Assembly (NCBI GenBank): GCA_039621445.1
Contig: CP154954.1
Coordinates: 35,015,703-35,079,702 of the forward strand
Reading direction: 5' to 3'
Length of the DNA stretch: 64,000 nt
Source of the DNA: Euglena gracilis
Taxonomy: Eukaryota
The translations under genes were made by a program, and so were the position numbers. This document shows positions 29,740 to 53,422 of the stretch, in pieces. Position 1 is the stretch's first letter. Each line of letters starts with the position of its first letter. The notes under the pieces are model-generated. The model was not told the origin of the DNA, ran no database searches, and worked only from the letters and a program-made list of their open reading frames with translations.

Positions 29740-32700
29740 ACTCCGAGTAACCGAATAGGTGTTCCAGGAGGCCTCCAAAGTCAGGGGACCCGTTGGTTTC
29801 ATGATTGTCGTGATTTAACGGTAAGAAAAACATGTAGCCGGAAGGTTGGTTGCAAGAAATGAGCAGATTTAGATGGGTGCATTCGACCATTCCGGGGGAC
29901 ATTTACCAGGTCAGCCCAGGTTACCATGCAAAAATGGACCAAATTGGGCCTTACTCCGAGTAACCGAATGGGTGTTCCAGGAGGCCTCCAAAGTCAGGGG
30001 ACCCGTTGGTTTCATGGTTGTCGTGATTTAACGGTAAGAAAAACATGTAGCCGGAAGGTTGGTTGCAAGAAATGAGCATATTTAGATGGGTGCATTCGAC
30101 CATTACGGGGGACATTTACCAGGTCAGACCAGGTTACCATGTAAAAATGAACCACATTGGACCTTACTCCGAGTAACCGAATGGGTTTTCCAGGAGGCCT
30201 CCAAAGTCAGGGGACCCGTTGGTATCATGATTGTCGTGGTTAAATGGTAAGAAAACCATGCAGCCGAAAGGTTGGTTGCAAGAAATGAGCAGATTTAGAT
30301 GGGTGCATTCGACCATTCCGGGGGACATTTACCAGGTCAGCCCAGGTTACCATGTAAAAATGGACCAAACTGGGCCTTACTCCGAGTAACCGAATGGGTG
30401 TTACAGGAGGCCTCCAAAGTCAGGGGACCCGTTGGTTTAATGATTGTGTGGTTTAATGGTAAGAAAAACATGCAGCCGGAAGGTTGGTTGCAAGAAATGA
30501 GCAGATTTAGATGGGTGCATGCTACCATTCCGGGTGACATTTATCAGGTCAGCCCAGGTTACCATGCAAAAATGGACCAAATTGGGCCTTACTCCGAGTA
30601 ACCGAATGGGTGTTCCAGGAGGCCTCCAAAGTCAGGGGACCCGTTGGTTTCATGATTGTCGTGGTTTAATGGTAAGAAAAACATGCAGCCGGAAGGTTGG
30701 GTGCAAGAAATGAGCAGATTTAGATGGGTGCATTCGACCATACCGGGGGACATTTACCAGGTCAGCCCAGGTTACCATGTAAAAATGGACCAAATTGGGC
30801 CTTACTCCGAGTAACCGAATGGGTGTTTCAGGAGGCCTCCAAAGTCAGGGACCCGTTGGTTTCATGATTGTCGTGGTTTAATGGTAAGAAAAACATGCAG
30901 CCGGAAGGTTGGTTGCAAGAAATGAGCACATTTAGATGGGTGCATTCCACCATTCCGGGGGACATTTACCAGGTCAGCCCAGGTTACCATGTAAAAATGG
31001 ACCAAATTGGGCCTTACTCCGAGTAACCGAATGGGTGTTCCAGGAGGCCTCCAAAGTCAGGGGACCCGTTGGTTGCATGATTGTCGTGGTTTAATGGTAA
31101 GAAAAACATGCAGTGGAAATGTTGGTTGCAAGAAATGAGCAGATTTAGATGGGTGCATTCGACCATTCCGGGGGACATTTACCAGGTCAGCCCAGGTTAC
31201 CACGTAAAAATGGACCAAATTGGGCCGTACTCCGAGTAACCGAATGGGTGTTCCAGGAGGCCTCCAAAGTCAGGGGACCCGTTGGTTTCATGATTGTCGT
31301 GGTTTAACGGTAAGAAGAACATGCAGCGGGAATTTTGGTTGCAAGAAATGAGCAGATTTAGATGGGTGCATTCGACCAATCCGGGGGACATTTACCAGGT
31401 CAGCCCAGGTTACCACGTAAAAATGGACCAAATTGGGCCTTACTCCGAGTAACCGAATGGGTGTTCCAGGAGGCCTCCAAAGTCAGGGGACCCGTTGGTT
31501 GCACGATTGTCGTGGTTTAATGGTAAGAAAAACATGCAGCGGGAGTGTTGGTTGCAAGAAATGAGCAGATTTAGATGGGTGCATTCGACCATTCCGGGGG
31601 ACATTTACCAGGTGAGCCCAGGTTACCATGTAAAAATGGACCAAATTGGGCCTTACTCCGAGTAACCGAATGGGTGTTCCACGAGGCCTCCAAAGTCAGG
31701 GGACTCGTTGGTTTCATGATTGTCGTGGTTTAATGGTAAGAAAAACATGCAGCGGGAATGTTGGTTGCAAGAAATGAGCAGATTTAGATGGGTGCATTCG
31801 ACCATTCCGGGGGACATTTACCAGGTCAGCCCAGGTTACCATGTAAAAATGGACCAAATTGGGCCTTACTCCGAGTTACCGAATGGGTGTTCCAGGAGGC
31901 CCCCAAAGTCAGGGGACCCGTTGGTTTCATGATTGTCGTGGTTTAATGGTAAAAAAAACATGCAGCGGGAATGTTGGTTGCAAGAAATGAGCAGATTTAG
32001 ATGGGTGCATTCGACCATTCCGGGGGACATTTACCAGGTCAGCCCAGGTTACGATGTAAAAATGGACCAAATTGGGCCGTACTCCGAGTTACCGAACGGG
32101 TGTTCCAGGAGGCCTCCAAAGTCAGGGGACCCGTTGGTTTCATGATTGTCGTGGTTTAATGGTAAGAAAAGCATGCAGCCGGAAGGTTGGTTGCAAGAAA
32201 TGAGCAGATTTAGATGGGTGCATTCGACCATTCCGGGGGACATTTACCAGGTCAGCCCGGGTTACCATGTAAAAACGGACCAAATTGGGCCTTACTCCGA
32301 GTAACCGAATGGGTGTTCCAGGAGGCCTCCAAAGTCAGGGGACCCGTTGGTTTCATGATTGTCGTGGTTTAATGGTAAGAAAAACATGCAGCCGGAAGGT
32401 TGGTTGCAAGAAATGAGCAGATTTAGATGGGTGCATTCGACCATTCCGGGGGACATTTACCAGGTCAGCCCAGGTTACCATGTAAAAATGGACCAAATTG
32501 GGCCTTACTACGAGTAACCGAATGGGTGTTCCACGAGGCCTCCAAAGTCAGGGGACCCGTTGGTTTCATGATTATCGTGGTTGATTGGTAAGAAAAACAT
32601 GCATCCGGAAGGTTGGTTGCAAGAAATGAGCACATTTAGATGGGTTCATTCGACCATTCCGGGGGACATTTACCAGGTCAGCCCAGGTTACCATGAAAAA

Positions 32701-36718: not shown

Positions 36719-37129
36719 AGTGTACGTCCAAGGACTTCCCTTTGACCCCTTTTGTCCCGGAAAAGCCTGTTTCGCTTTCTCCTGGTGCGCACCTACTTAG
36801 GTGAGTAAAAATCCTTGGAGTAACAAAAGCCCTTTTCCCAATTCCCCTATGCTAAGGCAGAGCACAAAGCAAGGCGCTGTAGAAGGATTTTCCTTCACAG
36901 TCGAGTTCAGTCTTTTCAGAGGTTAATCCTCTTGCTTCAAAACAATCAAAATGTGAAGAATAGAATACCACCTGTGAGGAAAAGAGATCACGCAGGCACG
37001 TGTGATACGTGTCGCTAAATCCCATAGGATCTGCCACGATCGTCAGGCTGTGTTCATCACAGCCGTCAGATTGTGACGGATCCAGACTCTGCAGGTTTCC
37101 CACAGAGCTGGGATCGTGCCTGGTACACA
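36719..37129 (-). repeat. 3' LTR (411 bp)
   Basis: Direct repeat of 53012-53422. Two substitutions spotted (gcagg/gtagg and ctggg/ctagg). Termini on the minus strand are TGTGTAC...GTACACT. Confidence 0.96.
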
Positions 37130-37139
37130 TCCCCCTCCC
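37130..37139 (-). promoter_or_regulatory. Polypurine tract
   Basis: The minus strand reads GGGAGGGGGA immediately before the 3' LTR start TGTGTAC. Confidence 0.85.
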
Positions 37140-38018
37140 AGGGCTATGCCCGATTTCCTTCTTGGACCAGGTCATCCCAGGTCCCGTCAGGATTTCAGAC
37201 ACAGCCCTGATCGGGTTCTGTTTTCCAGAACACGGATCTCTTTTCTCCACAGGGGCGCAACCCAAAAACCCGAAAACGCGCAAAAGGTTACCGCTTATCG
37301 CGGTTACCTATTAGCCGTTTCGGCTTAGGGGTGCGAAAAAGCCCACTGTGGGAAATTGGGGCTTGGCAGGTTTCCTGTCAAAGTATCCCATCCACCCACT
37401 TTGGGTGCGCCAAAGGCACGCGGGGTTGGTCAAGCGATTCGCTGAAAACCCGAGGGGAGAGGTGTGGAAGGGGGGGGGCAGGCTCCTATCCTGGTCATAC
37501 CCGGATAGGGCTCCTAGGCGGTCATATCCGCACTAGGAAACAAAAGCCTACTTACAAAACCGACTGCCGGCGACAGCTTTGCGGGGGTGGGGGGAAAGTA
37601 GGGAGGAGAGGGGGGCTGGCTTAGGCCAGAACAGAATTTTTGCTGTCTGGCAGCCTTAAGGGCCTTAGGGCCGAAAAGTGACAAGTTGGCCTATTATTAC
37701 GGCGTGCGCGCTGTGTGCTGTGCGTCACTTAGCGGCTTGCCAGGTTTCCCGGCTGCCAAGGTCTTCACAGCAGTAGCTCCTTCACGACGCAATAAGAGGC
37801 GATTACCTCCCGCAGACGGTTTCCGTCCGCATGGTCACTGGTATAATGGGTTGGCAGGGGGGGGGGGCTCTTGGATGCTTCCATCCAGAGCGCTGAGGGA
37901 CACAGACCCAGGTTCATCCCAGGGCTGTTTAGCGATTTCCGCTTCCAGTGTATATATATAGTGTATGAGCTCCATGAAGGCGCTTACCTTACATGGGCTT
38001 GGTAATGCCGTTTCGGCA

Positions 38019-41000
38019 TTACATCCGCTCCAGCCGCCAATAGTCATGGCGGGAGTCCAAGGGATCTTCCACAAGGACCATCTGGAATTGTGGTGGCTGT
38101 GGCCTGTCGACAAGCCAGGTTTCTGGCGAGTCGTAGTCGAAATCAGGTGCGATCCAGTCCCGAACCCATCCTTCGGGTACTGTCTGCTTGGTGGCACTCG
38201 CTCTTTCCGCGAGAAACCACTGCAGCTTCTCCCAGAATTTCCTGGGCAAAGTCGCTGGCCAGATGAAGTAGTTTCTCCGAGGGTGATTGGCTGACACCTG
38301 CGGGGCATTCCCCGGGTGGAAGTCGATGGGAACGTGGTAGGCGCATTCCGCCCGGACTGTATGGGGTCGCAATACGGCCCCTAGCCAGTCCTTCCAGGTC
38401 ATCCCGTGTTTTTCGGGTGGCCATTGTGGTAGGCACCAGCGACCGTTTCGGTCCTGGGTTGTGAACAGGCGGAAAAGTATCTTTTCCCTGTCCGCTGTCT
38501 CCCAGAGGTAAGGTAATCTTACCCCTGCTTCCTCAGCAGCGAGGCGTATCGCCCCACTGTCGATCTGCCACCCACGGGCCATTCCCGTGTGGCGGTAGTC
38601 GTCAAGCTTGAGGTTGGCATACTTGAAAAAGTCCTTGAACTTTTTGTTCAAGGTGGAGTATTCCTCCAGTGGCTTCTCGGCACTCGGCACGATTGTGCGA
38701 ACTGCGCCTTCCGCAGTGTGCCAGAAGGTACCTCGCAGGCAATTGACGCAGAGTACTGGTACATTCGTACCATCTCGTTCCGTGTAGCAAAAATTGTGCT
38801 TGTGGGTCCAACTGTCCACGCACTTGGCGCATACCAAGGCGGCACAGTTGGGTATGTACATATCCTTGTGGAACGATTTCCGCTCCACAGGGTTGCACAC
38901 ATGGACGAGGGGTAATCCCAAGTCAGGGGCACTGTTGTACATCCTGTGGCAAACAGTGCAGAGCCACACAAATCGGTTTTCCGATGTTCTGTCGACGAGG
39001 AATTCCTCGCCAAAGTATTGGGCCAAAACACGTGGTGATCTGGAATTGTAATAATTCCAGGTGACATTCTGGTCAAAGGACCATTTCCGTCCTTGACAGA
39101 ACAGTGGTTCAATCCACCGATTGAGACATTGGTCTGTTCGCAGCTTGTGTTCGATCATCATGTACCTGTTTTTCAGGTCATGAGTCTCAGGATCATCCTG
39201 AGTCATCGCATTCCAGTCGATGACAACTTCGCCTTCCGAAGGTGTCATAGTCGTAGAGGCGCGGGATTTTCCCTGCCCCTTCGTAGGTGGTTTCGGCTGT
39301 GAGGTTTTCCCATAGCCGGATGATGTGACCTGTGTGAATCCTCCTCCCGAGGCTAATCCTCGAGAAGAAGATGCACCCTGGCCTCCAGCACCACCACCGC
39401 CTTTCGGTGGGGGCTGATCACCTGTTTTAGGTGAGGGTTTGCAAGGCGCGGCACCGGGCTTTGATTTGGCCGGGGCCTTCGGACTTCCGCTTTCCGGAGC
39501 ATCCGAGGGTCGCCGTTCGGCGTCACGCTTGCTTGACCAGGTGCGTGGTGACGGCTGGGCCGGGGGTCTTTTCCCCGACACCGAGCGTCGTTGACCTTCA
39601 GCAGGGGTTTCCCGAGCTGAGGGTCGCCCTACGCGTTCTTTCGCTGCGCTCGTGGGTTTCCCAGGAGCAGCCGTGGAAGATGGTGTGGGCGTCGCCGCTG
39701 CACTTCGCGTTGGCGGAGTCTGTGGTGGGGGCATGGATGTCCGTGCAGCCTGTTTTTCAGGTGCCGGTGTCCGTGTGCCCGCACGCGTCGGTGCAGTGAC
39801 CGCGGTGTGTGGAGGTACGGGCTCATCCCGTGCCTCTGATCCCGCTACCGGTGCTAATGTAGGTTCATCCTGCACTGGCACGGGTAGCGTTGTCACCACG
39901 GACATTGCCGTTGGTTCGCCCTCCGTCCGTGTCGTTTCCGACACCGGCGGTGGCGCGGCCATTGGGGGAGGTTCATCCTCCTCCATGGCTGCAGCTTCAG
40001 TTGTTTCGTCCGCTGGCTGGGCCGTTTCTGCCGCAGCAGTGGAAGAGCTAGCTGCAGTGCCACGTGGGGTGACAACTGCGATCAGTGATCGCAAACCGCC
40101 GAGTACGCGTCCGCCCAGTGAGGGGCGCCGTTCAGGTCCTTCCCCTGAAGTGGGCTCCTCCACTGGCTCCTCTGTCGTCGGGATTTCCCCGGGGACAGGA
40201 AGCTTGAGGCGTAATACCTCAGGCGTATGGGTTACCGTCTCCGGCGGGTTTTCCCGCGGAGGGGTCGGTCCTCCTGGCGTACCCGGTGAGGATGGTGACA
40301 GTGGGACAGGCGTCATTTCACCTGTCGGTGATCCCGGGCGCTGGGCGGTTTCCGCCACAGTGTCCAGCATCACAACCGATGGGCTACGGGTTTCCCGTGC
40401 CGGAGGTTCCGCAGGCTGAGGTTCATCCTCGGCCATTGGGACCACTTCTTCCGTCTCCTCCGCTTCCGGAGGTGAGTCCTCTGTGTGTAGCTGTGCTGCA
40501 GAACGCGGGTCTTCCCCGGTTCTGTAGCACCCCTGTGCGTCTGACAGGCGGAAAAAGCTAATACTTTCGCTCCTGTCAGAGTTGGGATATGGGGGTGGCC
40601 ATGACGGTCTTACCCAGCTTCCGGGTAAGGGCTCTGGCTCGTCCTCGTTGTTACGGCAGAGGTCTTCCCACTGCATTCGCCGATCCCAGCTCATGCCACG
40701 TTCTCCTGTGTCTTCCAGGAAGGCTGGTAGCGGCAAGGCATAACGTGGTTGTTTTTCCACGTCTGCTGCGTAGAAGGACTGGAAATCTTCCCAGATCAGG
40801 ATATTCCCGAACTGGTTTTCCATGTGCTTCGGAAGACCGATTTCGGCCTCGTACCAGTCCGGCCGCAGGTTCATCCTGCGTCGGTCTTGGTCATTCGGTC
40901 TGGCTTCTTCCTCGGTGTATCCCCGAGGTAACCACTTCCTGTGAATATTCACATCAGTGGTCATGTACTCCAGGAAATAAATGTACACCTCCAGGACGTA

Positions 41001-43619
41001 GGTAATCCACGCCCTGTGCCAGTATTGTTGAAGCAGAAATATTTTCTGCCGGTGCTGTTTCAGCACCTTTCGATCTTGCGTTCCGATCTGGGGCTTTCGG
41101 CACTGATGCAGGAGAAATCTCCTGGTCAGTGGGCTGCCGGCATTCTCGGCAGTCGGAGGCGGTTTTCCACGCTCACCGAAACCCCAGAAATCAACAATGT
41201 GTTGCTCTTTGCAAAACTGGCATTCCAGCTTGTAACGCTGAGGATAGGCGAGGTCCACGTCCAGTACCTTGAACAGCATGCCATACATGCTATCCAAGAA
41301 TACTTGGAGGTTGTTCGTGAACATTACCGCAGCCTGCACCTGGAGTTTCTCCGGCAGGGGGTAATACTTCCACTGGATTCCCAGTGCGCTGACGGAATAC
41401 ATGTGGTTGAAGATTTCCTTCAACTGTGCGACGAACGTTTCATCGTCAGGACATGTTCCCAAACAGTTCACGTACGACTGACCGTTTCGGTCAGTAAAGA
41501 TGCCGAAGTTCTGGCAGGGGTATCCCAACCAGAACCACAGCTCCCAGAAACCGGGCATCCGGTCCAGGACGACTTCATTCGAATGAGGGTATCCCTCAAA
41601 TGCATGAAGTTCAGAACTGTAGAAAAAGCTGTTGCAGTGATCGTACATACGATCCTGTACCACTTCGAGCACCGCTTCCGGTGGTCGGTGGATGACGTTA
41701 CCTGCACGCGTGTACTGCTGAAGATTTTCTTCAATTTTCGGCCAGATCTCATCCAGGTAGTCGAACACCTGGTTAACGTCGTAATCCTTCGTTTTCGAAG
41801 GGTCGGCGGCTTTTCCGCCTTTTCCTGTCGGGGGTCCGGCAGATTTTCCGCCTTTGCCTGGAGCTGGTCCAGCGGGTTTTCCGCCTTTCCCAGATGGGGC
41901 TTTCCCACCTTTCTCCTGGCCTTTACCTTTACCCTTACCCTTGCCTTTTCCTTTACCCTTGCCCTTCGTGTTGGACAGCCATTCTATTGTCGCCCGATAT
42001 GGGTCCCAATATTCCCAGTATTCTGGGTCTTCTTCTGTATACACAGGATAAGTCACGGATTCCGTGCTTGGTGTTCGAGCAAATTCCTGCTCAGCATCAC
42101 CACGATTCGAGTAAACCGGTGCGACTGGGGATGGTCGGGTTTCCCGACGTGCCCGTTCTGCCGTCACGTCGGGCGCTGGCGGAGCTTCCTCCTCAGCGTC
42201 GACGTGCATCGCCGCGGGCGGATTTTCCGACCTCGGCGAGCGGCGTTGTGGCTGCGGCGTCAGATTTTCCGGGCCGCGGTCACGTTTGCCGGCGGCAGAG
42301 CTTGTGGGTCGTGCTGGTGGCGCTTCCGCCACAGCCACGTCCCGCTGTCGCGCTGGTTGACTTAACCGTGATGGAGCTGGGACTCCTGTGAGAGCCGACA
42401 CAGCAGCATCATACTGCTGGCGCTCTTCCCGTGTCATTTCCGCCCGGGCAGGGTATCCCTGGCCAGCGGAAACAGGGGGGCGACGTGCGATTTGTCGTTG
42501 GATCGTCACAGCATATTCATACTGTTGACGGTCCTCCTCAGTCTCGAACGGCCGACCAGTCCACGGGTTAACGGGTTCATCCCGTGCCGGGGGAACTGGT
42601 ACCGCACGAGGCGCTGCCGCGGCTTCCCGCGGACGAGCGCTTCGGGCAGAGTCAGACGTCGGGGGAGGATTTCCCGCCGCAGGACGTCGTGGAATAGGGT
42701 CAGGTATAGATGGGTGGGGTTGAGGTGGATATACATACTGATCCTGTGGGCTTGGCGCCTCCTGGGGATAATCCCCAGAGACGGCGTACTGAGACACAGG
42801 CTCCTGCGCAGGATAATCCCGCCGGGGCATGCGCTCAGGGGATCGAAAAATACTTTCTTTCACACGTGGGTGTTCACTCCGGACAGGTGCTTCCACCGTC
42901 TCTTCCTCGGGTAATCCGGGGGAGTGAGCACGAAAATGTGCAGTGTAAGTGCCAACGGGTGGTACCTGCCTTGCGACCTGTGGCGGGACTTCCACGCCCA
43001 GGTCACGCATGGTAATGTCTGCCGCGAAACCCGACGCGTCCGGGTCGGTGTAATACACCAGACCGGTCATCGTCGCCTGGGCGCACATACACCACAGGGC
43101 TGGAGGGGTATTCGCGATGGTCAAAACTTTACGGCAGTGGTCATCCCACAATGCCTGTGTGAGTTGGTCTGGTGCCGGGTTTGCGCTCATACGCATAACC
43201 CGGTTCATCGTCTCCGCCGTGCGGTGGATCATCACACCCGCATACGGTGGGAGGCGACGAGAGCCTGATGGCTGAGATGGCCGCGCTTCCGCGGGCATCT
43301 GGGTCATCCTGCTACTGCTGCTGGCTTCAGGGTTTCCCTGAGCCGCAGTCCGTGCAGGTGGCTGCGTACCGTATCGGTATGCATACTGGTCAGGTTGAGG
43401 GTGAGTGGTGGGGTGGTAAGGCGGTCCTCCGCCTGAATCCCTTCCACCGGGCAGCATGATACCGCCCGGGGTCGGTACGGTAAATTGTGTGGGTGGTTTG
43501 TTGTCAAGTGAAAGGTATCTCCCTGGTTTGGGTATTGGTTGGCAAACAAAAATTCTGCGGAAAGAAAGAATGATAAGAATCAATGATAAAAAGAAAAGAA
43601 AACAACATGGGTTTCCCAT
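38019..43619 (-). CDS. Extra ORF3 of the retrotransposon, 1866 aa, function unknown
   Basis: Uninterrupted 5.6-kb frame starting 6 nt after the chromodomain stop. Hydrophobic N-terminus, Pro/Ala/Glu-rich disordered tracts, a (KG)n run at about 41920-41965, an aromatic-rich central domain with CQFC..H, and a C-terminal CTVC..HVC..CAALVCAKC..CVNC Zn/RING-like cluster. The true start could be a later ATG. Confidence 0.85.
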   Translation of the reverse strand: MGNPCCFLFFLSLILIILSFRRIFVCQPIPKPGRYLSLDNKPPTQFTVPTPGGIMLPGGRDSGGGPPYHPTTHPQPDQYAYRYGTQPPARTAAQGNPEASSSSRMTQMPAEARPSQPSGSRRLPPYAGVMIHRTAETMNRVMRMSANPAPDQLTQALWDDHCRKVLTIANTPPALWCMCAQATMTGLVYYTDPDASGFAADITMRDLGVEVPPQVARQVPPVGTYTAHFRAHSPGLPEEETVEAPVRSEHPRVKESIFRSPERMPRRDYPAQEPVSQYAVSGDYPQEAPSPQDQYVYPPQPHPSIPDPIPRRPAAGNPPPTSDSARSARPREAAAAPRAVPVPPARDEPVNPWTGRPFETEEDRQQYEYAVTIQRQIARRPPVSAGQGYPARAEMTREERQQYDAAVSALTGVPAPSRLSQPARQRDVAVAEAPPARPTSSAAGKRDRGPENLTPQPQRRSPRSENPPAAMHVDAEEEAPPAPDVTAERARRETRPSPVAPVYSNRGDAEQEFARTPSTESVTYPVYTEEDPEYWEYWDPYRATIEWLSNTKGKGKGKGKGKGKGKGQEKGGKAPSGKGGKPAGPAPGKGGKSAGPPTGKGGKAADPSKTKDYDVNQVFDYLDEIWPKIEENLQQYTRAGNVIHRPPEAVLEVVQDRMYDHCNSFFYSSELHAFEGYPHSNEVVLDRMPGFWELWFWLGYPCQNFGIFTDRNGQSYVNCLGTCPDDETFVAQLKEIFNHMYSVSALGIQWKYYPLPEKLQVQAAVMFTNNLQVFLDSMYGMLFKVLDVDLAYPQRYKLECQFCKEQHIVDFWGFGERGKPPPTAENAGSPLTRRFLLHQCRKPQIGTQDRKVLKQHRQKIFLLQQYWHRAWITYVLEVYIYFLEYMTTDVNIHRKWLPRGYTEEEARPNDQDRRRMNLRPDWYEAEIGLPKHMENQFGNILIWEDFQSFYAADVEKQPRYALPLPAFLEDTGERGMSWDRRMQWEDLCRNNEDEPEPLPGSWVRPSWPPPYPNSDRSESISFFRLSDAQGCYRTGEDPRSAAQLHTEDSPPEAEETEEVVPMAEDEPQPAEPPARETRSPSVVMLDTVAETAQRPGSPTGEMTPVPLSPSSPGTPGGPTPPRENPPETVTHTPEVLRLKLPVPGEIPTTEEPVEEPTSGEGPERRPSLGGRVLGGLRSLIAVVTPRGTAASSSTAAAETAQPADETTEAAAMEEDEPPPMAAPPPVSETTRTEGEPTAMSVVTTLPVPVQDEPTLAPVAGSEARDEPVPPHTAVTAPTRAGTRTPAPEKQAARTSMPPPQTPPTRSAAATPTPSSTAAPGKPTSAAKERVGRPSARETPAEGQRRSVSGKRPPAQPSPRTWSSKRDAERRPSDAPESGSPKAPAKSKPGAAPCKPSPKTGDQPPPKGGGGAGGQGASSSRGLASGGGFTQVTSSGYGKTSQPKPPTKGQGKSRASTTMTPSEGEVVIDWNAMTQDDPETHDLKNRYMMIEHKLRTDQCLNRWIEPLFCQGRKWSFDQNVTWNYYNSRSPRVLAQYFGEEFLVDRTSENRFVWLCTVCHRMYNSAPDLGLPLVHVCNPVERKSFHKDMYIPNCAALVCAKCVDSWTHKHNFCYTERDGTNVPVLCVNCLRGTFWHTAEGAVRTIVPSAEKPLEEYSTLNKKFKDFFKYANLKLDDYRHTGMARGWQIDSGAIRLAAEEAGVRLPYLWETADREKILFRLFTTQDRNGRWCLPQWPPEKHGMTWKDWLGAVLRPHTVRAECAYHVPIDFHPGNAPQVSANHPRRNYFIWPATLPRKFWEKLQWFLAERASATKQTVPEGWVRDWIAPDFDYDSPETWLVDRPQPPQFQMVLVEDPLDSRHDYWRLERM

Positions 43620-43625
43620 GCGTTC

Positions 43626-44100
43626 TCAAAAACTTGTCATGGAAACATCAATGTTATGTTTTTTATTCCACAGCTTCCAATCTTGCTGGACATACCCAAC
43701 AAAACTGGTTGCTGGCTCCCAAGTGTCCTCCTCGGGCCCATACCCTTTCCAGCGGACCTTCCAAAGGTGCATACCTTTGTCGATTTTGTGATCGATAATT
43801 TTATCGACTACAAAGTCGTCCGTCTCAGGTAATCTGGAACGGGGTTTGAAGTGCAAACACGGGATGGGTTTCCCATCCGGTGGCGACATGTATGGCTTGA
43901 AGTCGTCCATATGAACGTCCTCAACACCATTCAGTAAAGCGTGCTTGTACCGCCCGCTGGTACCTAGTCTTTATAGGATTTCACAAGGGCCGAGCCAGAG
44001 GGGGTCCAGCTTGGAAGACTGCATGCGAGTACGGCTATTCCGTACCCACACGCGGTCACCGGGACTGTAAACAGGTGACTTGAAATTCTGCAAAAACGAT
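43626..44100 (-). pseudogene. pol: Integrase C-terminus (GPY/F-type motif) and chromodomain, frameshifted from pol and containing one in-frame TAA
   Basis: Reads PGDRVWVR...SKLDPLWLGPCEIL*...VHMDDFKPY, then FVVDKIIDHKIDKGMHLWKVRWKGYGPEEDTWEPATSF, a canonical chromodomain signature (about 43690-43820). Confidence 0.9.
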
Positions 44101-47100
44101 TTCCGTTTTGCTGCATGAATCAGTCACGCGTTTCTGGACTGCAGAACGTAGATTTTCTACTTCCGCAAACCAGGTCTCGCAACTGACACTCGTTCGGGCG
44201 GGTCTCTCCGAAGGGACATCCCCTATGGCCGGAGGGTCCCGTCCGAAAACTAATTTATAGGGGGAGTGAGGTAAAACCAACCCTGGTAGGGTATTGATAT
44301 AAAACAAAGACCATGGTAGAACTGATATCCAGTTGCTGCGCGAGTCAGCCAGTGAAAGGCGAAGCATATTCACGACGGATTTCACGGCTGCCTCGGCTCT
44401 ACCATTGCCTTTGGGTCGGTATATAATGGAAAAATGTTGCTCGATTCCGAGTAAACCGCACAAAGTGGTGAAAAACCTTGAAGAAATCAAATGGTCTTGA
44501 TCACTCACAATTTCATTCGGTAAACCCATCAAGCAAATGCATTTCTCCAAAAATATAGCTGCCAAACTTTGGGCAGTCAACCCTGACTTCTGGCATGGAA
44601 TGGCTACAATGTACCCACTCAGCCTGCAGACGACAACAAAAACGTAATCGTAAATTTTGTCGTCTGTTCCTTTGCACGGTTCCAATTCCAGAAAATCCAT
44701 GCAGAGGGATGTAAAAATGTCAGGGGGTACGGGGAAAAAGTCCATCGTACCAGGGGGGGTACCTCTGCGGGGTTTTACCGCTTGACAAATTGACCTCGTT
44801 GCGCTATGCGCAAACAGCGTGAGTAGAGCTCTTTTTTCGCTCAGGGTTGTACAGTACCTGCGGCCCACCAACGAAAGAAGTTTGGGGGCCCCAGGGTGAC
44901 CATGGTTGTGATAACACAAAATCACATCATCAACCAGGTCCTGGGGGATACAATATTTGTAACCCGATTCATTGCGAAAAACCAACCGTAAAGGTGAAAG
45001 AGTGTAATTATCCAGCACTTCGCCATTACGAAGTCTGGTGACAATGGTGTCATACACCGGATCACGACTATAATCCCATTCGCGAAAGAACAGTGGGGAA
45101 GGGGACTCCGTGCGCGTAATACGCCGGGGCCCGGACGTGCTTCCACGTCGGCGCCTTCCTCGCACTGGTGCGACCAGGAATAGTTGTGAAACGGGAAAAG
45201 AATCCAAAAGATTATCCGCAGCGTCGTTTCGACGTGCGTAGTCGTCAGCTTCCTGACTTCCATGAAAAGTCGCGTCTCCCTCATCCGGGTTCCCAGGGTA
45301 ATACCAAGGGGCCCGACTGAGCGGATCCGCTACTTTTTGTGTGTGACCAGGGGTATAGATAACCACAAGGTTGAATTGACTCAAGAACTCATGCCATCTG
45401 CATCGCCTTCCGACCGATGACATGGCCTTGTTCAAATCCTCGGTGTACCAGTGTTGGAGACTCTCATGGTCGGTCTTGACGAGGATCTGGACGAGGCTGC
45501 TGGCTACCCAGCTTCGGAATTTCTGGAGTATAAGCACGATTGCGTAGGTTTCCTTCTCGCGTATACTCCATTTGACTTGACCTTTTCCATCGTCGCCCTG
45601 TAACTTTCTGCTGAAGAAAGCCACAGGTCGGAGCTCATTCGCCGCATTATGCTGGCTAAGAACTCCGCCAACAGCGTAATCGCTGCTGTCGACTTCCAAC
45701 ACGTATGGTTTGTACGGGTCCGCGATTTCGAGGACAACATTCTCCAAAAGCAAAACCTTGATTTTCTCAAGGGCCTCGCGCATTTGGTCATCCCAAATGA
45801 CTTTGGTGTTGTCAACAGCCCGGTTTTTGAGCTGTTTGGTGAGGGGCACCGCGATTTTCGCGAAGTCCTTCATATAAATCGCGTAGTATTGGGCTAATCC
45901 CAAAAATCCTTTGAGGTGAGTAATCGTTTTGATTACCTCAGGGGTCCATTTCTTAATGGCTTCGAGTTTACTCGGAGCGGCTTTCCGCTGTCCATTGCTG
46001 AGGATGTGACCGCAAAATTTTATGAGAATCCGAAACAAATGCATTTTCGCGCCTTTCGCGAAAAGCACATGTTTTTGAAAAGCGGTTAATACCGCACAAA
46101 CATGGTGGAAGTGTGTGACGAGGATATCCTCGGTCGATTTTGCGGATGGTGGTGGTGTTCCCACCAGCACATCATCAATGTACACAATGGCAAACGGTAA
46201 ATCGCGTAGAACCCATTGTATCATGCGCTGAAACATGGCTGGGCCATTCTTAACACCCATGGGGAGTACCGTCCATTGGTACACACCCTTGGATGTCACG
46301 AATGCCGTGTATGGTTGGGAGTCAGGGTGTAAGTGCATTTGGTGAAAACCGTCCTCCAGATCGAAAATTGACCACAACCGGTTTTCCGATTGTTTGGTGA
46401 TCAAATCCTCGATCAGGGGGAGCGGGAAGGGATCATCCCTTGTTTGGGAGTTCAGGTACCGGTAATCCAGCACCAGCCTCCATTTCTTCTGACCTGAGGG
46501 GTCTGGGGGTTTAGGAACAACAAATGCCTGGGATGTCCACTCGCTTTTCGAGGGTACTATCCACTTGCGCTGAATAAGCTTCTCAATCATTTCATTGAGA
46601 GCTTGTTCGCGTTCTCCCGAACAACGAAAAAATTTCCGGTGCATTGGCTTTGCTCCATCCTTAAGCTCGATCTTACAAACACCGAACGGACCGCGTATCG
46701 CGGGGTCGATGTCGCACGCGTATACTGGATTTTCCAGCACACCGTGGAATTCGCGGGTAATCCGCGAACAGAATTCGGCTGACTTAGGATGCTGACCTGC
46801 ACTCTCGATGACTGCGGAAACCGCCAGGGTATCCCTGGGGCTACCGAGCTTCCTCGGCACCGCAAATTCGGACATTCCGAATGCATCGAAGAAACATACG
46901 CGAAAAATGATTTCTTGCAAGGGTGGTAATATTTTACCACAAAAATCCTCAAAAATCGGTACATTAGTGGGTAAATCCCACCAATGAAAACATACATACG
47001 ATAGTTGGGTGAACCATTCCGCTTCCGGAATGATGGGTATGAGAATAACTCCACGGGCTTCATCCCGCAGAATTTTCTCAACCGCACATTCGATAAGTTT

Positions 47101-47418
47101 TGGGGGAGGGTGCATCCATAACACCGTATCACCCCAAAATTTATCAAATGCGTTGGAGTGTTGTGACCAATGACGTGGCAAACGGGCATGTGCATTGGAT
47201 GAGAAGGCATCGATTTCCAATGCCAAATCAAAAGAATCAGCCAATGTCGCGATTTTGGAAAACCATCGTTCCAAAATGCGATATTGACCAAAATTGAAAG
47301 CATTCCATACGCGTTTCGCGTATTCATGCACCCGATTTTCGGGTTGAAGGGTAGAAACACAATGAATGGATCCACAAACATGCGGGTTGTCTTCCACTAC
47401 CACAAGGGTTAATCCCAA
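44056..47418 (-). CDS. pol: Pol: MTase-like domain, reverse transcriptase, RNase H and integrase core
   Basis: RT: KWRLVLDYRYLN, FDLEDGFHQ, LPMGVKNGP, VYIDDVLV. RNase H: LEVDSSDYAVGGVLSQ, EKETYAIV, KTDHESL, ADPLSR. Integrase: HNHGHPG, CMDF, IVSDQD, GNGRAEAAV (DDE). Confidence 0.96.
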   Translation of the reverse strand: MGLTLVVVEDNPHVCGSIHCVSTLQPENRVHEYAKRVWNAFNFGQYRILERWFSKIATLADSFDLALEIDAFSSNAHARLPRHWSQHSNAFDKFWGDTVLWMHPPPKLIECAVEKILRDEARGVILIPIIPEAEWFTQLSYVCFHWWDLPTNVPIFEDFCGKILPPLQEIIFRVCFFDAFGMSEFAVPRKLGSPRDTLAVSAVIESAGQHPKSAEFCSRITREFHGVLENPVYACDIDPAIRGPFGVCKIELKDGAKPMHRKFFRCSGEREQALNEMIEKLIQRKWIVPSKSEWTSQAFVVPKPPDPSGQKKWRLVLDYRYLNSQTRDDPFPLPLIEDLITKQSENRLWSIFDLEDGFHQMHLHPDSQPYTAFVTSKGVYQWTVLPMGVKNGPAMFQRMIQWVLRDLPFAIVYIDDVLVGTPPPSAKSTEDILVTHFHHVCAVLTAFQKHVLFAKGAKMHLFRILIKFCGHILSNGQRKAAPSKLEAIKKWTPEVIKTITHLKGFLGLAQYYAIYMKDFAKIAVPLTKQLKNRAVDNTKVIWDDQMREALEKIKVLLLENVVLEIADPYKPYVLEVDSSDYAVGGVLSQHNAANELRPVAFFSRKLQGDDGKGQVKWSIREKETYAIVLILQKFRSWVASSLVQILVKTDHESLQHWYTEDLNKAMSSVGRRCRWHEFLSQFNLVVIYTPGHTQKVADPLSRAPWYYPGNPDEGDATFHGSQEADDYARRNDAADNLLDSFPVSQLFLVAPVRGRRRRGSTSGPRRITRTESPSPLFFREWDYSRDPVYDTIVTRLRNGEVLDNYTLSPLRLVFRNESGYKYCIPQDLVDDVILCYHNHGHPGAPKLLSLVGRRYCTTLSEKRALLTLFAHSATRSICQAVKPRRGTPPGTMDFFPVPPDIFTSLCMDFLELEPCKGTDDKIYDYVFVVVCRLSGYIVAIPCQKSGLTAQSLAAIFLEKCICLMGLPNEIVSDQDHLISSRFFTTLCGLLGIEQHFSIIYRPKGNGRAEAAVKSVVNMLRLSLADSRSNWISVLPWSLFYINTLPGLVLPHSPYKLVFGRDPPAIGDVPSERPARTSVSCETWFAEVENLRSAVQKRVTDSCSKTEIVFAEFQVTCLQSR
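46884..47285 (-). other. DIRS/phage-Dam-like N6-adenine DNA methyltransferase-like domain within pol
   Basis: EIDAFSSNAHARLPRHWS...NAFDKFWGDTVLWMHPPPKLIECAVEKI...GVILIPIIPEAEWF follows the DxFA..N..hP.a.S..DAF..W...PP..LI....KI....hhhhP....W pattern of DIRS-element MT domains. Recognised by eye. Confidence 0.8.
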
Positions 47419-48159
47419 GGGAGTTTGGACAGGTTGGGGGTTTCCCCATTCCGCATCAAATTCCGTAACAAGTGTGATCGCGATTGTAATTAGGAATCGC
47501 GCTTTTCGCGTTTCCGAACAACGAGGCTAATCCGCGTTGTTGGAGTACTCGGTGTACCTCCGCGCATTGCGGGCTACAACCAAGTGTATCCTGGGGGGTG
47601 GATTCCGTTTTCGGAATTGCGATTAGTGTCGGATTTTGAACTAAACATCCACAATCGAAATCCGATTGGGTGGAAATTCTCCTGCAGTGCACACATTGGA
47701 AGGAAGTGTGATGGTGTGACGGGTGTGCGTGAAAGTGGGTGTCGATGGCATTAGCCGGTGAGTCTTGTACAGGTGTGCCTGGATTCGGCACAACTGGTAG
47801 GGAAACGGAGTGGTGGTGTAGCTGGGCGACTACTCGACACCGATTACTTCAGGCCTTTGGGCTTTCGTCTTGTAACCCAGGAAACGGCGGGGGTACCGCC
47901 CTACTCTCGCTGCCTGCCTCATGTGGAACGCATTTGGGTGTTGCTTGGATGAAAGGCATCGATTTTCCAATGCCCCCTCCCTCCGTCCCCCCTCCATGCG
48001 ATTGACCAATTTTTCGCGTTCCACGTGTGACAGTTGTTGGGTTTGGATCACAGGTTTCCATTGGTCGGTGTGGGCCCAGGTGGTCAATCATGGATACAGG
48101 GGTTTGGGTCCTTGGGTTTCGCTGTGGGCTGGCAAACCTCTGTGGTCGCGAACACAACT

Positions 48160-48450
48160 CAATCGTACTGTGCGTAAAAAAGGGTATCCCAAATTACGTC
48201 AATCTGTATCTCCGGCGCACCCAATTTTGGTGTTGTACTGTGGTGTTGTGTGATGCTGCGGAATGATGGCAAGATTATCTCGACTACCCCACCACCACAC
48301 CGATTGGGTTATCCCTTGTATCTTGTGTGTGTAAATTGGTAATTCTTTGTCCTGTCTTGGTACCAAGAGCGGTCGGTATCAACCCCAACCGTAGAGCAGT
48401 GCATGCGACCACCCATGTCATGAGAATTTTAACTTTGTAGAAATGGGATG
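48160..48450 (-). pseudogene. Degenerate, frameshifted retropepsin (aspartic protease)
   Basis: Allowing 1-nt shifts, the minus strand gives KVKIL-x-DMGG (about 48440-48405, at the DTG position) and IQIDVI-LGYPFLR (about 48210-48172). It lies at the expected position between gag and RT. Confidence 0.5.
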
Positions 48451-48899
48451 CTTTTCCGCTTGGACAGTAATTCCATTGGTGGTTCAAGTGGGTTGGCAAC
48501 CGTTTGCATGCCAGCTCTCCCATGAATTGTTTTTTCTTTGCTCAGCATTCATTCCGAGCGGAAATGTGAGTTGTGGTACAGAAATAATTCCGGATTCCAC
48601 CGTTTGGAAGGCGATGCATGGGGGGTAAGGTTGATCAGCGCAACCTCCTCTGTTCATCAGCCCCATCGTGCCCTTCGGATCCTCTCCCCTACTCCAAGTC
48701 ACCCCCGCAAGAATGAACCGGCCGCATCCCCAAAATAATTTTTGGTGGAATAGATGGATGTTCAATGACACCGCCATCGGTTTACTTCGGTTTCGGGGCG
48801 CCTCATTATTCCCCGTCCGAGGTCTCATCCCCTCCCCGCCTGCCCAAGCCGGGGTGTCCTCCTCCAAACATAATGAACCAAGCCTCCAAGTGATGATCC

Positions 48900-51800
48900 C
48901 ACCCCACTCAACCGCTCCCTCCCCCGCGTTTCCTCCACGTAGCCGGGCCGGGGAACGAGATCTGGGACATTTGGATGCGTGGTGATCTTTGGAACCGCAA
49001 GTGAACAACGTGATTTGTGGCGGATCCGCATAACGGGGGAACGGTATTTTCCGTTTTTCCGTCAAACCGTCGTGGTGAACGGGTTTTCCCCTCCCGACCT
49101 CTGTATTCCCGTACCTCGCGTGAATCGATGACTCGCGCTCCACTTCGCGAACGTGATCGAAGCGGGTTGAAATCCCGTTTTCGGGCAGGGGGCCAGGTGA
49201 CCGACCGCGAGGACGGGTTTCCCCGACCATACCTCGCATGTGTGACTTGGCCTACCGCTAAAGTCGTCTCTCCGAAGACCGTGAAACTCCCGATTGACGT
49301 GAAAACGCCGAGGAACCCGATCCCCGTGAGGAGGTCGAGCCCCTTGGGCTTCCAATACGCTTTCCGCGCATCGGATTCGGGCATTCCCGAGACATGTGAC
49401 CAGATTTGTTGCACAAAAAGCACAGTTTATCCGTGCCCTGGTCCGAAGAACGCTGATTCCGCGTTTTCGGTCCCGTGGTGGGTGATCTTGGTGACATGGG
49501 TGATTTGCGCAAGGCATTAACCGCACCCGCAGGGATTCCCGCAGTGGGATGCGTTTGGAAAGCGGACTGTATTTGTCCCACTTGTGTGAGCTTGAGTTGC
49601 TTTGACACATAATTCCAACGTTGGGCAAGAGTCATCTCATGCCCTGCCAACTCCTCGCGATGGATATCCTTCACGAGGATGGTGTGAAATGCAACAGAAC
49701 CGCATCGAATTGTTCGCGCATTTGCTTCTCGCTAAGTTCATCAACTTCGGAAGCAAGTGCTAACCATTTGGCATACCAAAGGTCAATGGATTTCCATTTG
49801 CGATCCGATGGCGCGCTTTGTCGCCACTCTTCTCCAGGTAATCCTGGTGACCAGACTTGAATTGGTTGCAGCGTATTGCTCAACCAGGTCATCAAATGAT
49901 ACGCCATTACGTATCACCAAATTGCGTGTGCGTTCTCGCTCCTCCCTCGGTAGGCAATCGATGAATTCCATCTTGACTACCTCGGGATTCGGGTCTTGGG
50001 TGGGTCCCTTTAGTGCCCAATAGTACTCCCAGTCCCGAAAAAATTGTCTCCATGTGGTTGGATCCCCGTCCCATTGGGGCTTCACCTTGTTCGCGATTGC
50101 GATGGTGCCCTTGAAGTCTCTCTGAGTAACCCGCTGACCCTCGGTGGTATTCCAGGGGTTTGGGTCAGGGTAATTCTTAACACCAAACGCGTTTCGCGGA
50201 TTTTTCGCTCTATGTTTAACCCGTGCAGGATTTCCCGCACCAAGTGTAGGGTTGGCAGGAGTCTCCTGCGGGAATTGCGAAAATGTGGTGAAATTCTCCC
50301 GTGGGGCGGGTTTCCCGCCGAAAACCCGATGGGTGTACTTGTAATCCAGAACCCTTTGGTGGTTGGTATGATCGCGAATGCGACACATGACCAATACCAG
50401 GTGTGGGGTGTTGGCTCATTCCTCGTACAAGGTTGGAATGTTGAATTTCTTGGTGGAGACTCGAATTTTCGAGTGGGGGGTCAATTTCCTCATCGGAAAT
50501 GTCGTGCGAAGAGTGAGTTTGTGGTGTTGGCAAATGCAAAGGTGGTACAATTCGCGTTTTCGCGGGTGGTTGTACCAAATTCGCGGTGGATGTAGGGATT
50601 CCTACTCCAGAAATGGTAATTTGAGAACGCGATTCCGGGACATTTGGAATACCAACCGCAGCGCTTACCGCGGTGGATGGTGGCACAACCGTATCGGAGT
50701 GGACATTTTATCCAAACTCGCGGACACGTCATGCATCGTTTCTTCCAAATGATCCACCCACTTGAGCTTGCCGCAAATAACGTCAACCTCAGTCTCCAAA
50801 TGCCTAATGCGTTTGCGGTAACGGGAAAAATCTTCCAAGTGTGGCAACTTTTCAGAAACCAAGTGTAATTCTTGGGCAAGATTTCCTTGGGACTCCTCCA
50901 CATTCCGGAGTTGACCCGCAAGCGCTTTTACCGCATTTGAGACGGTTTGCAATTGGTGGAGTGACTTGGTGGGGGTTTCCACGGTGGTGCGCGAATTTCC
51001 GCGGTTGGCTTTTCCAACAACGCAGAAATTCGTCCATCCAACCGAGAAACCTCATCTTGCATGGATCGGGCATTCCGATTCACGCTTTCCTCAATTTGGA
51101 GCAAACTTGTACAAAATGCTTGCAAGGTTTCCTTGTTGTCACCAAGCACTTTGTCATAAAATGAGCGAAATTCCGGTGACTCGGATATCCGAGCACGCGA
51201 AATGGGGGGTAGTGAGCGGATTTCCGTCACTGTGGTGGACAACAAGGTGCAACGGGTTTGTAATTCCCCAATAGCGGCTTGAATACCACTAATGTCGGGA
51301 ATTCGCTTGGAAAGTGCAGAAACATGCTCCTGCAAACCGACAACGGTGGCATTAATACCGCCAATGTCCGTTTGCATTTGTTGTTGCATGAAATCCAACC
51401 GTTGTGCGCAATCCGCGATTTTCGCGTTCAAGGTGGTTAATCCATCCTGATTTGCGGCACAATGGCAGGATTTTTGCTCCAAGTGTGAAATTCGTTCCTC
51501 CAAAAGCTGGATTTGCGTACGGGGAACAAAATTTTCTTGCACTTTCGCCTGAAATTGCTTCAAATGCTCGATTTCCGAGCCAAGATGCAAAATCCGTTGT
51601 TGTGCTTCTTGGAAAGAAGTGGTAAGTGCGGCAAAATGCTCAACCGCGACAAAGTTACCGATTTCCGGCATTTTGGGGGTGGCATTTTGCGCTTGTAACT
51701 GCTGCTGCAATTGCAGTAACATGGTTGAACAGGATTCCAATTGGGCAAAAAGATGGCTCATACCATCCTGCACATGCAGAAACTTGGAATCATTCCGCGT

Positions 51801-52757
51801 TTCCGCTTCATGCAGCATTTCGCTGATTTGTTGGAAATTTTGTGGAAGTTGGATGCGCAAAATACTGTCAACACTTTCTCGAAAATGCTGAAGGTCTTTC
51901 CCCGCATTTTCAAAATTGTGTTGGCAATATTTGCCGATTTCCTGCAAATAATTCCAGCAACATTCCAGTTTGGTGTTGACAACCCTTTGATTGTCCTCAT
52001 CAAACTGCAAAACTTTGTTGAGCATGGTTGCGCATTCCGCAACGCATTGGTGGACATGCAAAATTTGCTTGCTAAGCGGGTGATCCGCTGGGAGTTGACC
52101 GAGAATTCGGTAAACATCACCGGGGGTGAGGTTATCCCTCAAATCTTCCTCATAGTCCTCCACAATGGAAACGGCACCAGAGATTTCCGGTACCACCAGA
52201 CGCATATCTGGGTTCCATGGCAATGCAGGGAAAACCGCAGCTTCCGCGGGTAATCCCGGCAAAGCGTGAAATGGTGTGGGGGGTGGTAATTGAGGGGGGG
52301 GTTGGAAAAAACACGGTGTTTCCACCGAGTTGCACTCCAAAAGGCCCACCGGTGCTTCCACCGGGGATCTTTTGGGTGTGAACAGAGCAAAGGGCAAATA
52401 CCCCTCACTTTGTTCATGGGTAACATGAGTAACCAAGTGTGAGGATGCAAGGGGTTCATCCCCTCGCCGTATCAATGATGGGTGAATCGGGATGGAGGAA
52501 GGCATTTTGCCACCTACATCCCGCACAATCAATGACAATGATGATGAAGAGGGCTCATTACCCCCATGCAACAATAAAGGCGTTTCGCCTTTTGACAATG
52601 ACAAATGAGTCAAATTGCCTTCTTCTTGCTTGGGGGGTCGGGAATTGGAACTTGTTTCATTCAAACCGTTCCAATCCCCGCAATCTTCATCACAATTGCT
52701 CAATGAACTCATCAACAAGTCATAATCAAATTTGGGGTTGGGGCTTGTGCTCTGCAT
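48900..52757 (-). pseudogene. gag: Gag, unusually long and broken into several frames
   Basis: Overlapping ORF pieces at 50928-52781 (coiled-coil rich, first ATG 52757), 50665-50982, 50216-50686, 49783-50394 (capsid-like KPQWDGDPTTWRQFFRDWEYYW) and 49671-49907. Zinc knuckles CFLCNKSGHMSREC (about 49381-49422) and x-FTCGSKDHHASKC (about 48967-49010). Confidence 0.8.
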
Positions 52758-52983: not shown

Positions 52984-53011
52984 GTAGGATCGTTGCCTAA
53001 ATCTGCTACCA
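52984..53011 (-). promoter_or_regulatory. Primer-binding site complementary to an initiator tRNA-Met-like 3' end
   Basis: The minus strand reads TGGTAGCAGATTTAGGCAACGATCCTAC directly after the 5' LTR. The plus strand gtagg-atcgttg-cctaa-atctgct-a-cca has T-arm, acceptor and CCA geometry. Confidence 0.85.
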
Positions 53012-53422
53012 AGTGTACGTCCAAGGACTTCCCTTTGACCCCTTTTGTCCCGGAAAAGCCTGTTTCGCTTTCTCCTGGTGCGCACCTACTTAGGTGAGTA
53101 AAAATCCTTGGAGTAACAAAAGCCCTTTTCCCAATTCCCCTATGCTAAGGCAGAGCACAAAGCAAGGCGCTGTAGAAGGATTTTCCTTCACAGTCGAGTT
53201 CAGTCTTTTCAGAGGTTAATCCTCTTGCTTCAAAACAATCAAAATGTGAAGAATAGAATACCACCTGTGAGGAAAAGAGATCACGCAGGCACGTGTGATA
53301 CGTGTCGCTAAATCCCATAGGATCTGCCACGATCGTCAGGCTGTGTTCATCACAGCCGTCAGATTGTGACGGATCCAGACTCTGTAGGTTTCCCACAGAG
53401 CTAGGATCGTGCCTGGTACACA
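53012..53422 (-). repeat. 5' LTR (411 bp)
   Basis: Direct repeat of 36719-37129, adjacent to the PBS. Confidence 0.96.

Follow-up and report, generated by a model that had tools for sequence, protein, structure and literature searches.

A stretch of 64,000 nucleotides of the Euglena gracilis genome (assembly GCA_039621445.1, contig CP154954.1, positions 35,015,703 to 35,079,702; hereafter the window) was analyzed, and the analysis was centered on a long open reading frame (ORF), ORF3, which lies between pol and the 3' long terminal repeat (LTR) of an LTR retrotransposon. Based on all the evidence, it was concluded that ORF3 is probably a genuine, selected accessory gene of this 16.7-kb chromovirus-type element, that its product founds a new protein family, and that this product is not an envelope protein (Env).

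ORF3 was found intact at 38019..43619 on the minus strand, in sense orientation with respect to the element, with its ATG at 43619, its stop codon at 38019-38021 and a coding capacity of 1866 aa. No stop codon occurred in its frame, when the other five frames contained 39-67 stops and 200 shuffles averaged 66, so that the probability of a stop-free frame was about 2e-29. The ATG was located 6 nt past the TGA of pol, in the same frame as the pol chromodomain, the spacer reading TGA-GAA-CGC. The uninterrupted sense-strand ORF in the env position, described in an initial annotation of this DNA, was thus confirmed. The hydrophobic N-terminus that had been pointed out there, CCFLFFLSLILIILSF, was located at residues 5-20 and was the sole strongly hydrophobic segment of the protein (Kyte−Doolittle value 2.35, next-best window 1.16). 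Over half of ORF3 was of low complexity and rich in Pro, Ala, Glu, Arg and Ser. A Lys/Gly-rich tract was found at residues 552-610 (41790..41966, minus strand); it included three 11-aa repeats, each with the pentapeptide GKGGK, which were encoded by a 33-nt tandem repeat of three units at 41795-41893 (residues ~576-608). The same pentapeptide is found in the N-terminal tail of histone H4. Two [LP]PxY motifs were present at residues 123 and 1008. ORF3 is a mostly disordered long scaffold with a basic Lys/Gly tract and two conserved modules of different kinds, both of which are predicted to bind zinc.

The variation among copies was assessed by placing the contigs of one DNA run (X1) on the element; these were collapsed contigs and not aligned full copies. 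At a likeness of at least 90%, 119,678 contigs were placed, of which 36,969 had a likeness of at least 99%, and all 30 bins of the element were covered, ORF3 included. The depth of X1 does not equal copy number, and parts of the element were not ranked by it. The 40 best-supported of 1135 substitutions were listed, and 28 of these 40 fell inside ORF3. Third-position, synonymous changes accounted for 22 of the 28, against a random expectation of 24% (binomial p 1.8e-9). The listed sites in pol with the chromodomain (n=3) and in ORF0, a further gene of the element (n=1, at 51261), were all at the third codon position. None of the 12 listed insertions or deletions was in ORF3, when 10 were in the gag/ORF0 region. 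Moreover, the 5.6 kb of ORF3 was intact in a copy in which gag, the protease and the integrase tail were all disrupted. The case for purifying selection on ORF3 among the copies is strong but incomplete.

A nested element with termini of its own, the alternative that had been raised at the outset, was rejected, as no terminal or inverted repeats flanked ORF3 and only internal tandem repeats were found. The cover of all ORF3 bins and the prevalence of synonymous changes likewise spoke against nesting. Judging by its position and by the X1 cover of all ORF3 bins, a sense-oriented ORF downstream of pol and ahead of the 3' LTR is present across copies. The data support ORF3 as an accessory gene that is conserved and belongs to the LTR element itself.

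A search of ORF3 against Pfam returned no family at E≤0.01. Further, residues 612-1811 were used as the query of an exhaustive phmmer search against 1.84 billion representatives of a 15-billion-protein collection, and 22 relatives of 74-689 aa were retrieved, 11 of them at E≤1e-10 and two at E≤1e-30. They formed three groups. Close fragments, with 55-70% identity, came exclusively from Logan assemblies; P0016, P0020 and P0023 were distantly related to the middle module alone, with 20-27% identity; and the last group was distantly related to the C-terminal module alone, with 22-46% identity (P0002, P0005, P0008, P0018, P0013, P0012, P0014, P0019, P0022 and P0011). With P0021 left out, the sources of the remaining 21 were Logan (8), ENA (7), JGI (4) and EukProt (2). 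The descriptions of all 22 consisted of 'hypothetical protein' or a transcript identifier, and the only relatives with a named origin were the EukProt entries P0002 and P0011, both Euglena gracilis transcripts. When ORF3 and ORF0 were compared with 138 fetched proteins, ORF3 was matched solely by 20 of the 22 phmmer relatives. A word-indexed protein search with the module alignments recovered P0022 only. In a scan of metagenome contigs for related loci, 244 pattern matches obtained with a three-sequence alignment, as well as 25 obtained with the pol relative P0026 as the query, included no relative, and neither did 436 pattern matches among viral contigs.

The middle conserved module comprised residues 612-1030 (40530..41786, minus strand) and was shared with P0016, P0020, P0023, P0017, P0006 and P0007. 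Its invariant core (41100-41222) was Q...C-x2-C...FWG...R followed by H-x-C, that is CxxC...DFWG...HxC, and the previously noted CQFCKEQH...HQC was indeed located there, at residues 800-840. P0023 had a similar lead-in to the module, composed of an acidic-aromatic EEYWEY and a Lys/Gly-rich sequence. The C-terminal conserved module comprised residues 1460-1866 (38022..39242, minus strand) and had ten homologues; past its zinc core it continued into a Trp-rich part with ANHPRxNxxIWPAxLPR. The prediction of two cysteine-rich globular domains was therefore upheld as to the domains, which are to be regarded as real modules because of their distant homologues and not because of their Cys content; the term 'cysteine-rich' overstated the middle one. 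An internal duplication linking both modules was considered and rejected (hhalign probability 0.2). Judged from their sequences, neither module is related to the other, and neither belongs to a described family.

The zinc core of the C-terminal module (38739..38963, minus strand; residues 1553-1627) contained ten invariant Cys and His residues arranged as CTxCH...HxC...NCxAxxCxxC...CxNC, which agreed with the CxxC...HxC...Cx4CxxC...CxxC cluster reported earlier. RING and PHD fingers follow the pattern C-x2-C-x(9-39)-C-x(1-3)-H-x(2-3)-C-x2-C-x(4-48)-C-x2-C, and the spacing of C1553/C1556, C1590, C1595/C1598 and C1624/C1627 fitted a RING cross-brace. However, the position of the fourth, His ligand of a RING was occupied by Ala in all seven aligned sequences, leaving the eight-ligand set incomplete, and because of this invariant Ala the core is termed RING-like and not RING. 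The fourth ligand might be replaced by the additional invariant residues H1557 and H1573-x-C1575.

The fold of the modules was approached by structure and profile searches. The AlphaFold (AF2) model of the C-terminal module had a mean predicted local distance difference test (pLDDT) score of 59.9, with 70-88 in the zinc core; the model of the middle module (mean pLDDT 43) was too poor for use, and VIA aligned it with nothing but isolated long helices (Z up to 5.6, 54-57 residues). With the C-terminal model, Foldseek found nothing in the PDB at E≤0.001; the best E was 0.55, and the PHD finger of TAF3 was aligned over 35 columns at E 3.3. The wide VIA search gave a best Z of 2.9 and included the RING of Slx1 (Z 2.0, root-mean-square deviation 3.4, 63 residues aligned), and pdb_via gave no match. 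Nothing in BFVD reached E≤0.001 either; among the top 50 rows, 12 were the baculovirus proteins IE2, PE38 and CG30, at a sub-threshold E of 0.13-1.6. IE2 was named as a RING protein in the BFVD output, and PE38 and CG30 are RING proteins as well. Profile searches against PDB sequences returned only rows at E>1, and Pfam searches with 10 homologues nothing below E 0.02. In the ESM Atlas, the C-terminal part scored 0.80 at best, and no match of use was obtained with the middle part. The RING of RNF141 matched the zinc core at a sub-threshold E of 0.89. When the isolated zinc module was compared with Pfam, zf-C3HC4_4 was the best RING model (E 0.092, 13.3 bits against a cut-off of 30), and the eight weak rows included four RING families as well as B-box and FYVE/PHD. 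The resemblance to a RING/PHD-type finger that the initial annotation had proposed was in line with the spacing and with these sub-threshold pointers, and the assignment itself was left short by the Ala at the fourth ligand, by the lack of any model above threshold and by the lack of a significant fold match. The zinc core appears RING-like, and its membership of the RING family is weakly supported.

The beginning of ORF3 was also considered at the nucleotide level. A T-rich tract ending in TTCTTTCTTTCCGCAG (43555..43607, minus strand), with its AG at 43556-43555, is a candidate 3' splice or trans-splice acceptor. This tract was the most T-rich 50-nt window in the element (64% T) and encoded the hydrophobic N-terminus of ORF3. 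Only three matches to Y10+-N-YAG were found on the sense strand of the element, namely the TTCTTTCTTTCCGCAG site and the same site in both LTRs. The candidate acceptor lay 50-65 nt inside the annotated ORF3, and the first ATG past it in any frame was that of Met55 (43455..43457, minus strand), which was in the ORF3 frame. Codons 1-27 had a GC content at third positions (GC3) of 0.30 and a T content at third positions of 0.48, compared to a GC3 of 0.57 for the whole ORF; all five Leu codons among them were CTT, TTA or TTG, when elsewhere Leu was encoded mainly by CTG and CTC. The second most T-rich 50-nt window, also ending in AG, was situated just 5' of the ATG of ORF0. The mRNAs of euglenids gain a spliced leader through trans-splicing. 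We proposed that the ORF3 mRNA would be a processed subgenomic RNA, formed by cis-splicing or by spliced-leader trans-splicing at the polypyrimidine-CAG acceptor, and that the protein would start at Met55, the 'hydrophobic N-terminus' being a translated acceptor tract. Translation of ORF3 from such an mRNA, via the internal acceptor and starting at Met55, is given a little under an even chance.

Several observations weighed against this mode of expression. No RNA joint at the candidate acceptor was present among the 15 of 202 joints that were listed, and none of the listed rows held a joint from the three RNA-type runs. Contigs of RNA-type libraries crossed the pol−ORF3 junction unbroken (X15 at 43459-44404 and X17 at 43159-44065), and therefore an unspliced form, or DNA, exists. 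Two rare DNA variants skipped 66 and 72 nt within codons 23-46, and these lengths, being multiples of three, are what would be expected if the N-terminus were translated. When the element was compared with runs X15-X18, nearly identical pieces of it, including ORF3, were also observed in a leaf-litter metatranscriptome library (276 contigs, 29 of 30 bins); RNA-library cover was not taken as proof of transcription, as there was no silent control stretch.

If the N-terminal stretch were instead a true signal anchor, ORF3 would encode a membrane-anchored Env-like protein or a factor of egress or transfer. The strong hydrophobicity of residues 5-26, the env position of the gene and the frame-preserving lengths of the rare variants were in line with this explanation. 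However, the tract was T-rich at all three codon positions, which pointed to a signal at the nucleotide level, and an Env would be expected to have an N-terminal signal, a C-terminal anchor and a glycosylated ectodomain, when ORF3 had one hydrophobic segment and two N-x-S/T sequons in 1866 aa. The absence of a C-terminal transmembrane anchor, as stated in the initial annotation, was confirmed, since no second transmembrane-like segment was found. The Pro/Ala/Glu/Arg-rich low-complexity sequence that makes up more than half of the protein and the Cys/His motifs resembling zinc sites also argued against a membrane protein, and no similarity to an Env family was found among Pfam families at E≤0.01 or among the 22 relatives. 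A membrane-anchored product is thus regarded as very unlikely, and the earlier view that ORF3 is not a classical Env was sustained. The product of ORF3 is more likely an intracellular protein than an envelope glycoprotein, and an intracellular scaffold is suggested by the long disordered acidic and basic tracts, the Lys/Gly tract, the two zinc modules and the two [LP]PxY motifs. It was proposed that the RING-like two-zinc module and the basic and acidic disordered regions would engage host chromatin or ubiquitin-type machinery, and that the element would thereby be better expressed or integrated, by a logic akin to that of the Dam, DNMT and chromodomain add-ons reported for Euglena LTR elements. 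An accessory factor directed at chromatin or ubiquitin is the function that we prefer, but it is a tentative assignment, and one that we hold as possible but by no means probable. A more elaborate version, in which a trans-spliced gene encodes a nuclear scaffold that acts as a variant RING-like ligase or chromatin reader and whose triple GKGGK repeat mimics the H4 tail, so that the element would overcome or make use of host silencing, seems unlikely as a whole. Alternatively, ORF3 could act in the particle as a chaperone for RNA binding or assembly, and would bind the element RNA in cis through its Lys/Gly tract and CxxC...HxC knuckles, in a role likened to that of LINE ORF1p or of a second nucleocapsid. 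The basic tract and two small CxxC...HxC motifs would serve such a role, and an ORF3 left intact beside defective gag and pol is what would be expected of a cis-acting product; yet no nucleic-acid-binding family was matched, and the probability of a chaperone is considered low.

It was also considered whether ORF3 arose by transduction of a host gene, or by fusion of two host genes, and is carried as a passenger that is useless to the element and still open only because it was captured recently. Both the GC content and the GC3 of ORF3 (GC3 of 0.57 overall and 0.64 in the modules) were above those of pol (0.51) and ORF0 (0.48), which favours a passenger and weighs against a gene of the element. 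Each module also occurred singly in short proteins (P0018 with 431 aa, P0016 with 470 aa), and pol relatives with 45-86% identity were without ORF3-like sequence. Against this stood the synonymous character of 22 of the 28 listed substitutions among copies 90-99% alike; a synonymous bias among diverged copies means that the frame was constrained during amplification of the family. In addition, the family has a very high copy number, and its DNA contigs covered every ORF3 bin. According to a review of plant LTR elements, transduced additional ORFs (aORFs) sit in one or a few copies, and aORFs found in most copies are treated as genes of the element (PMC7264820). A recent, useless passenger is therefore unlikely; of the suggestion that ORF3 is a captured gene, capture as the ultimate origin was retained, and a functionless passenger was contradicted by the listed substitutions. 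The chromodomain segment and ORF3 shared one frame and were split by one TGA and two codons, and thus ORF3 could be a C-terminal extension of Pol produced by TGA readthrough, giving an integrase−chromodomain−ORF3 fusion for targeting. The frames would, however, match by chance in one of three cases, and the chromodomain frame was itself severed from pol in this copy. The pol of four relatives (P0026, P0027, P0031 and P0032, 51-66% identical) stopped at nearly the same point, only a few residues away, past the chromodomain, and for this reason the TGA before ORF3 is taken as the natural, ancestral end of pol. The TGA-GAA context is not known to promote readthrough. A readthrough product is accordingly held to be quite unlikely.

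The preferred reading, that of a selected accessory gene, has further points to answer besides the codon composition and the invariant Ala. The variant evidence comes from the 40 best-supported of 1135 differences and from collapsed contigs, and no fold or family search returned a significant match to ORF3. A long ORF3 homologue was absent from the 15-billion-protein collection. None of 116 pol relatives, some of them on contigs of 10-19 kb, contained ORF3- or ORF0-like sequence, and ORF3 may be confined to one sub-lineage.

The carrier is a giant and very abundant Ty3/gypsy chromovirus-type LTR retrotransposon. Nearly all of the window consisted of a 213-bp satellite, and one such element of 16,703 bp interrupted the array at 36719-53421 on the minus strand. 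The 5' LTR (53012..53421, minus strand) and the 3' LTR (36719..37128, minus strand) were 410 nt each and differed by 2 mismatches in 410 (99.5% identity); the satellite resumed directly outside the 5' LTR, and a target-site duplication, satellite ...(A)CATTTA, was present at either end. The primer-binding site TGGTAGCAGA (53002..53011, minus strand), which presumably pairs with the 3' end of initiator tRNA-Met, abutted the 5' LTR, and the polypurine tract GGGAGGGGGA (37130..37139, minus strand) adjoined the 3' LTR. The sense order was ORF0, gag remnants, pol, integrase tail with chromodomain, ORF3 and ~0.9 kb of non-coding sequence. The terminal features, together with the order reverse transcriptase (RT)−RNase H−integrase and a C-terminal chromodomain, were those of a Ty3/gypsy chromovirus; an intact gag and aspartic protease were lacking in this 16.7-kb copy. 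No other copies of the element or solo LTRs, and no tRNA or Rfam features, were found in the window.

The element has a second non-canonical gene, ORF0. It was located upstream of gag (50928..52757, minus strand), with 621 aa from stop to stop (50928-52793) and its first ATG at 52757, and it was coiled-coil-like, with long heptad-like stretches rich in Gln, Leu and Glu. Its Pfam matches were sub-threshold only (NPV_P10 with 27.6 bits against a cut-off of 29.8, and spectrin-like). The gag remnants (48487..50415, minus strand) retained two CCHC knuckles (zf-CCHC E=1.3e-5 in Pfam) and contained frameshifts and stops, with six in-frame stops in the best frame and several frame changes; at several positions most genomic contigs held 1-3 bases that were absent from the window copy. 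Alignment to the protease of the relatives was weak and limited to its last part, and the region was devoid of a D[ST]G[AS] motif. The bin 48277-48813, where the protease was expected, had near-zero cover in all four runs, the X1 depth being 933 compared to ~1e6 in the adjacent bins; an empty bin proves nothing by the read tool's own warning, and the segment may occur in this copy alone, or filtering may have removed it.

The main pol frame (44056..47526, minus strand) contained a Dam-like domain, RT, RNase H and the integrase core (RVT_1 2.1e-24, RT_RNaseH_2 7.7e-24 and rve 6.2e-9 in Pfam), and was 66% identical to P0026 across 1157 residues. The Dam match at pol residues 59-138 (18.9 bits) was under the Pfam cut-off of 28.1; this stretch was 48% identical to the relative P0029, the Dam family PF05869 was carried by 16 of the 116 listed pol relatives, and a chromodomain by many; both were present in the closest pol relatives. 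At ~47100-47121 (pol residues ~136-142) the Dam motif read HPPP in the window copy, NPPF in P0032, NPS in P0026, HPPA in P0027 and NPPL in P0031. NPPF is of the motif IV type of methyltransferases; in this sub-lineage, the Dam domain may lack activity. The integrase tail and chromodomain (43626..43970, minus strand; Chromo E=2e-11 in Pfam) lay in the ORF3 frame and ended at the pol stop TGA (43626-43628). This segment was linked to the main pol frame only via a frameshift and was preceded by an in-frame TAA; by tblastn with P0026, the frame switch was placed near element position 9330. Since gag, protease and the integrase tail are broken, this copy is not autonomous, and since the LTRs are 99.5% identical, most of the damage to gag and pol probably predates its insertion.

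Elsewhere in the window, the satellite at 1-10788 was older and more diverged (86% matches, compared to 95-97% elsewhere in the array) and contained long spurious ORFs of up to 1005 aa. PHD-like and Ig_Pom152 Pfam 'hits' in these ORFs were rejected as artefacts of tandem-repeat translation, with no qualifying stretch. Islands without satellite were observed within the array at 27314-29740, 10769-11516 and 59865-60567. The 2.4-kb island 27314-29740 contained three ORFs of 165-214 aa without a Pfam match. Across 59865-60567 the orientation of the satellite switched and the GC skew changed sign.

LTR retrotransposons were estimated to make up 21.8% (Table 4) or 32.8% (text) of the Euglena gracilis genome in a published report (PMC11252322). 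The biology of these elements is almost uncharted, and a selected 5.6-kb gene in a high-copy element implies a function beyond those of gag and pol. If ORF3 were expressed by trans-splicing, a retroelement would have adapted retrovirus-like subgenomic expression to a spliced-leader host; subgenomic mRNA formation of this kind in LTR elements was not found described in the literature searched. If the zinc module acted as a ligase or read chromatin, it would extend the emerging view that euglenid elements bring epigenetic toolkits of their own. No description of the ORF3 of this window was found in a literature search that covered main texts.

Among known systems, viral RING regulators offer one comparison. 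Herpesvirus ICP0 is a RING-finger regulator of a DNA virus, and the baculovirus proteins IE2, PE38 and CG30 have a Cys spacing in common with the zinc core; a parasite-encoded ligase directed against host silencing would follow the same logic. However, the zinc core differs from the viral RING regulators by the insignificance of the matches, by the invariant Ala in place of His and by the extra invariant CH...HxC pair.

ORF3 resembles the sense-strand aORFs that plant LTR elements carry downstream of pol, ahead of the 3' LTR, in position, orientation and presence across copies, and the function of those aORFs is mostly obscure (PMC7264820). Unlike them, ORF3 is far larger (1866 aa) and belongs to a protist element with a Dam-like domain and a chromodomain; it has no sequence or domain relation to them and is not Env-like. 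The ORF3s of bdelloid rotifer LTR retrotransposons are diverse and include env-like, GDSL esterase and DEDDy exonuclease genes (PMC5408684). These likewise fill the post-pol slot by recruiting unrelated genes, but they belong to recognizable enzymatic or fusion-protein families, when the ORF3 described here matched none. Extra post-pol ORFs were thus already known from these two studies (PMC7264820, PMC5408684), and what is new here is an orphan family with two undescribed modules in a euglenid-type Dam-chromovirus. A further comparison is offered by the Euglena DAM-LTR or 'EpiLTR' elements, which are described in a preprint as Ty3-like with a chromodomain and a Dam-type domain in pol; Euglena LTR elements are reported there to accumulate Dam, DNMT and chromodomains, with chromatin cargo near the 3' end of pol (bioRxiv 10.64898/2026.05.21.726589). 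In the passages of the preprint that were retrieved, the cargo of those elements is DNMT and no separate large ORF3 is described; ORF3 of the window, which has no methyltransferase signature, occupies the same 3' slot as this chromatin cargo.

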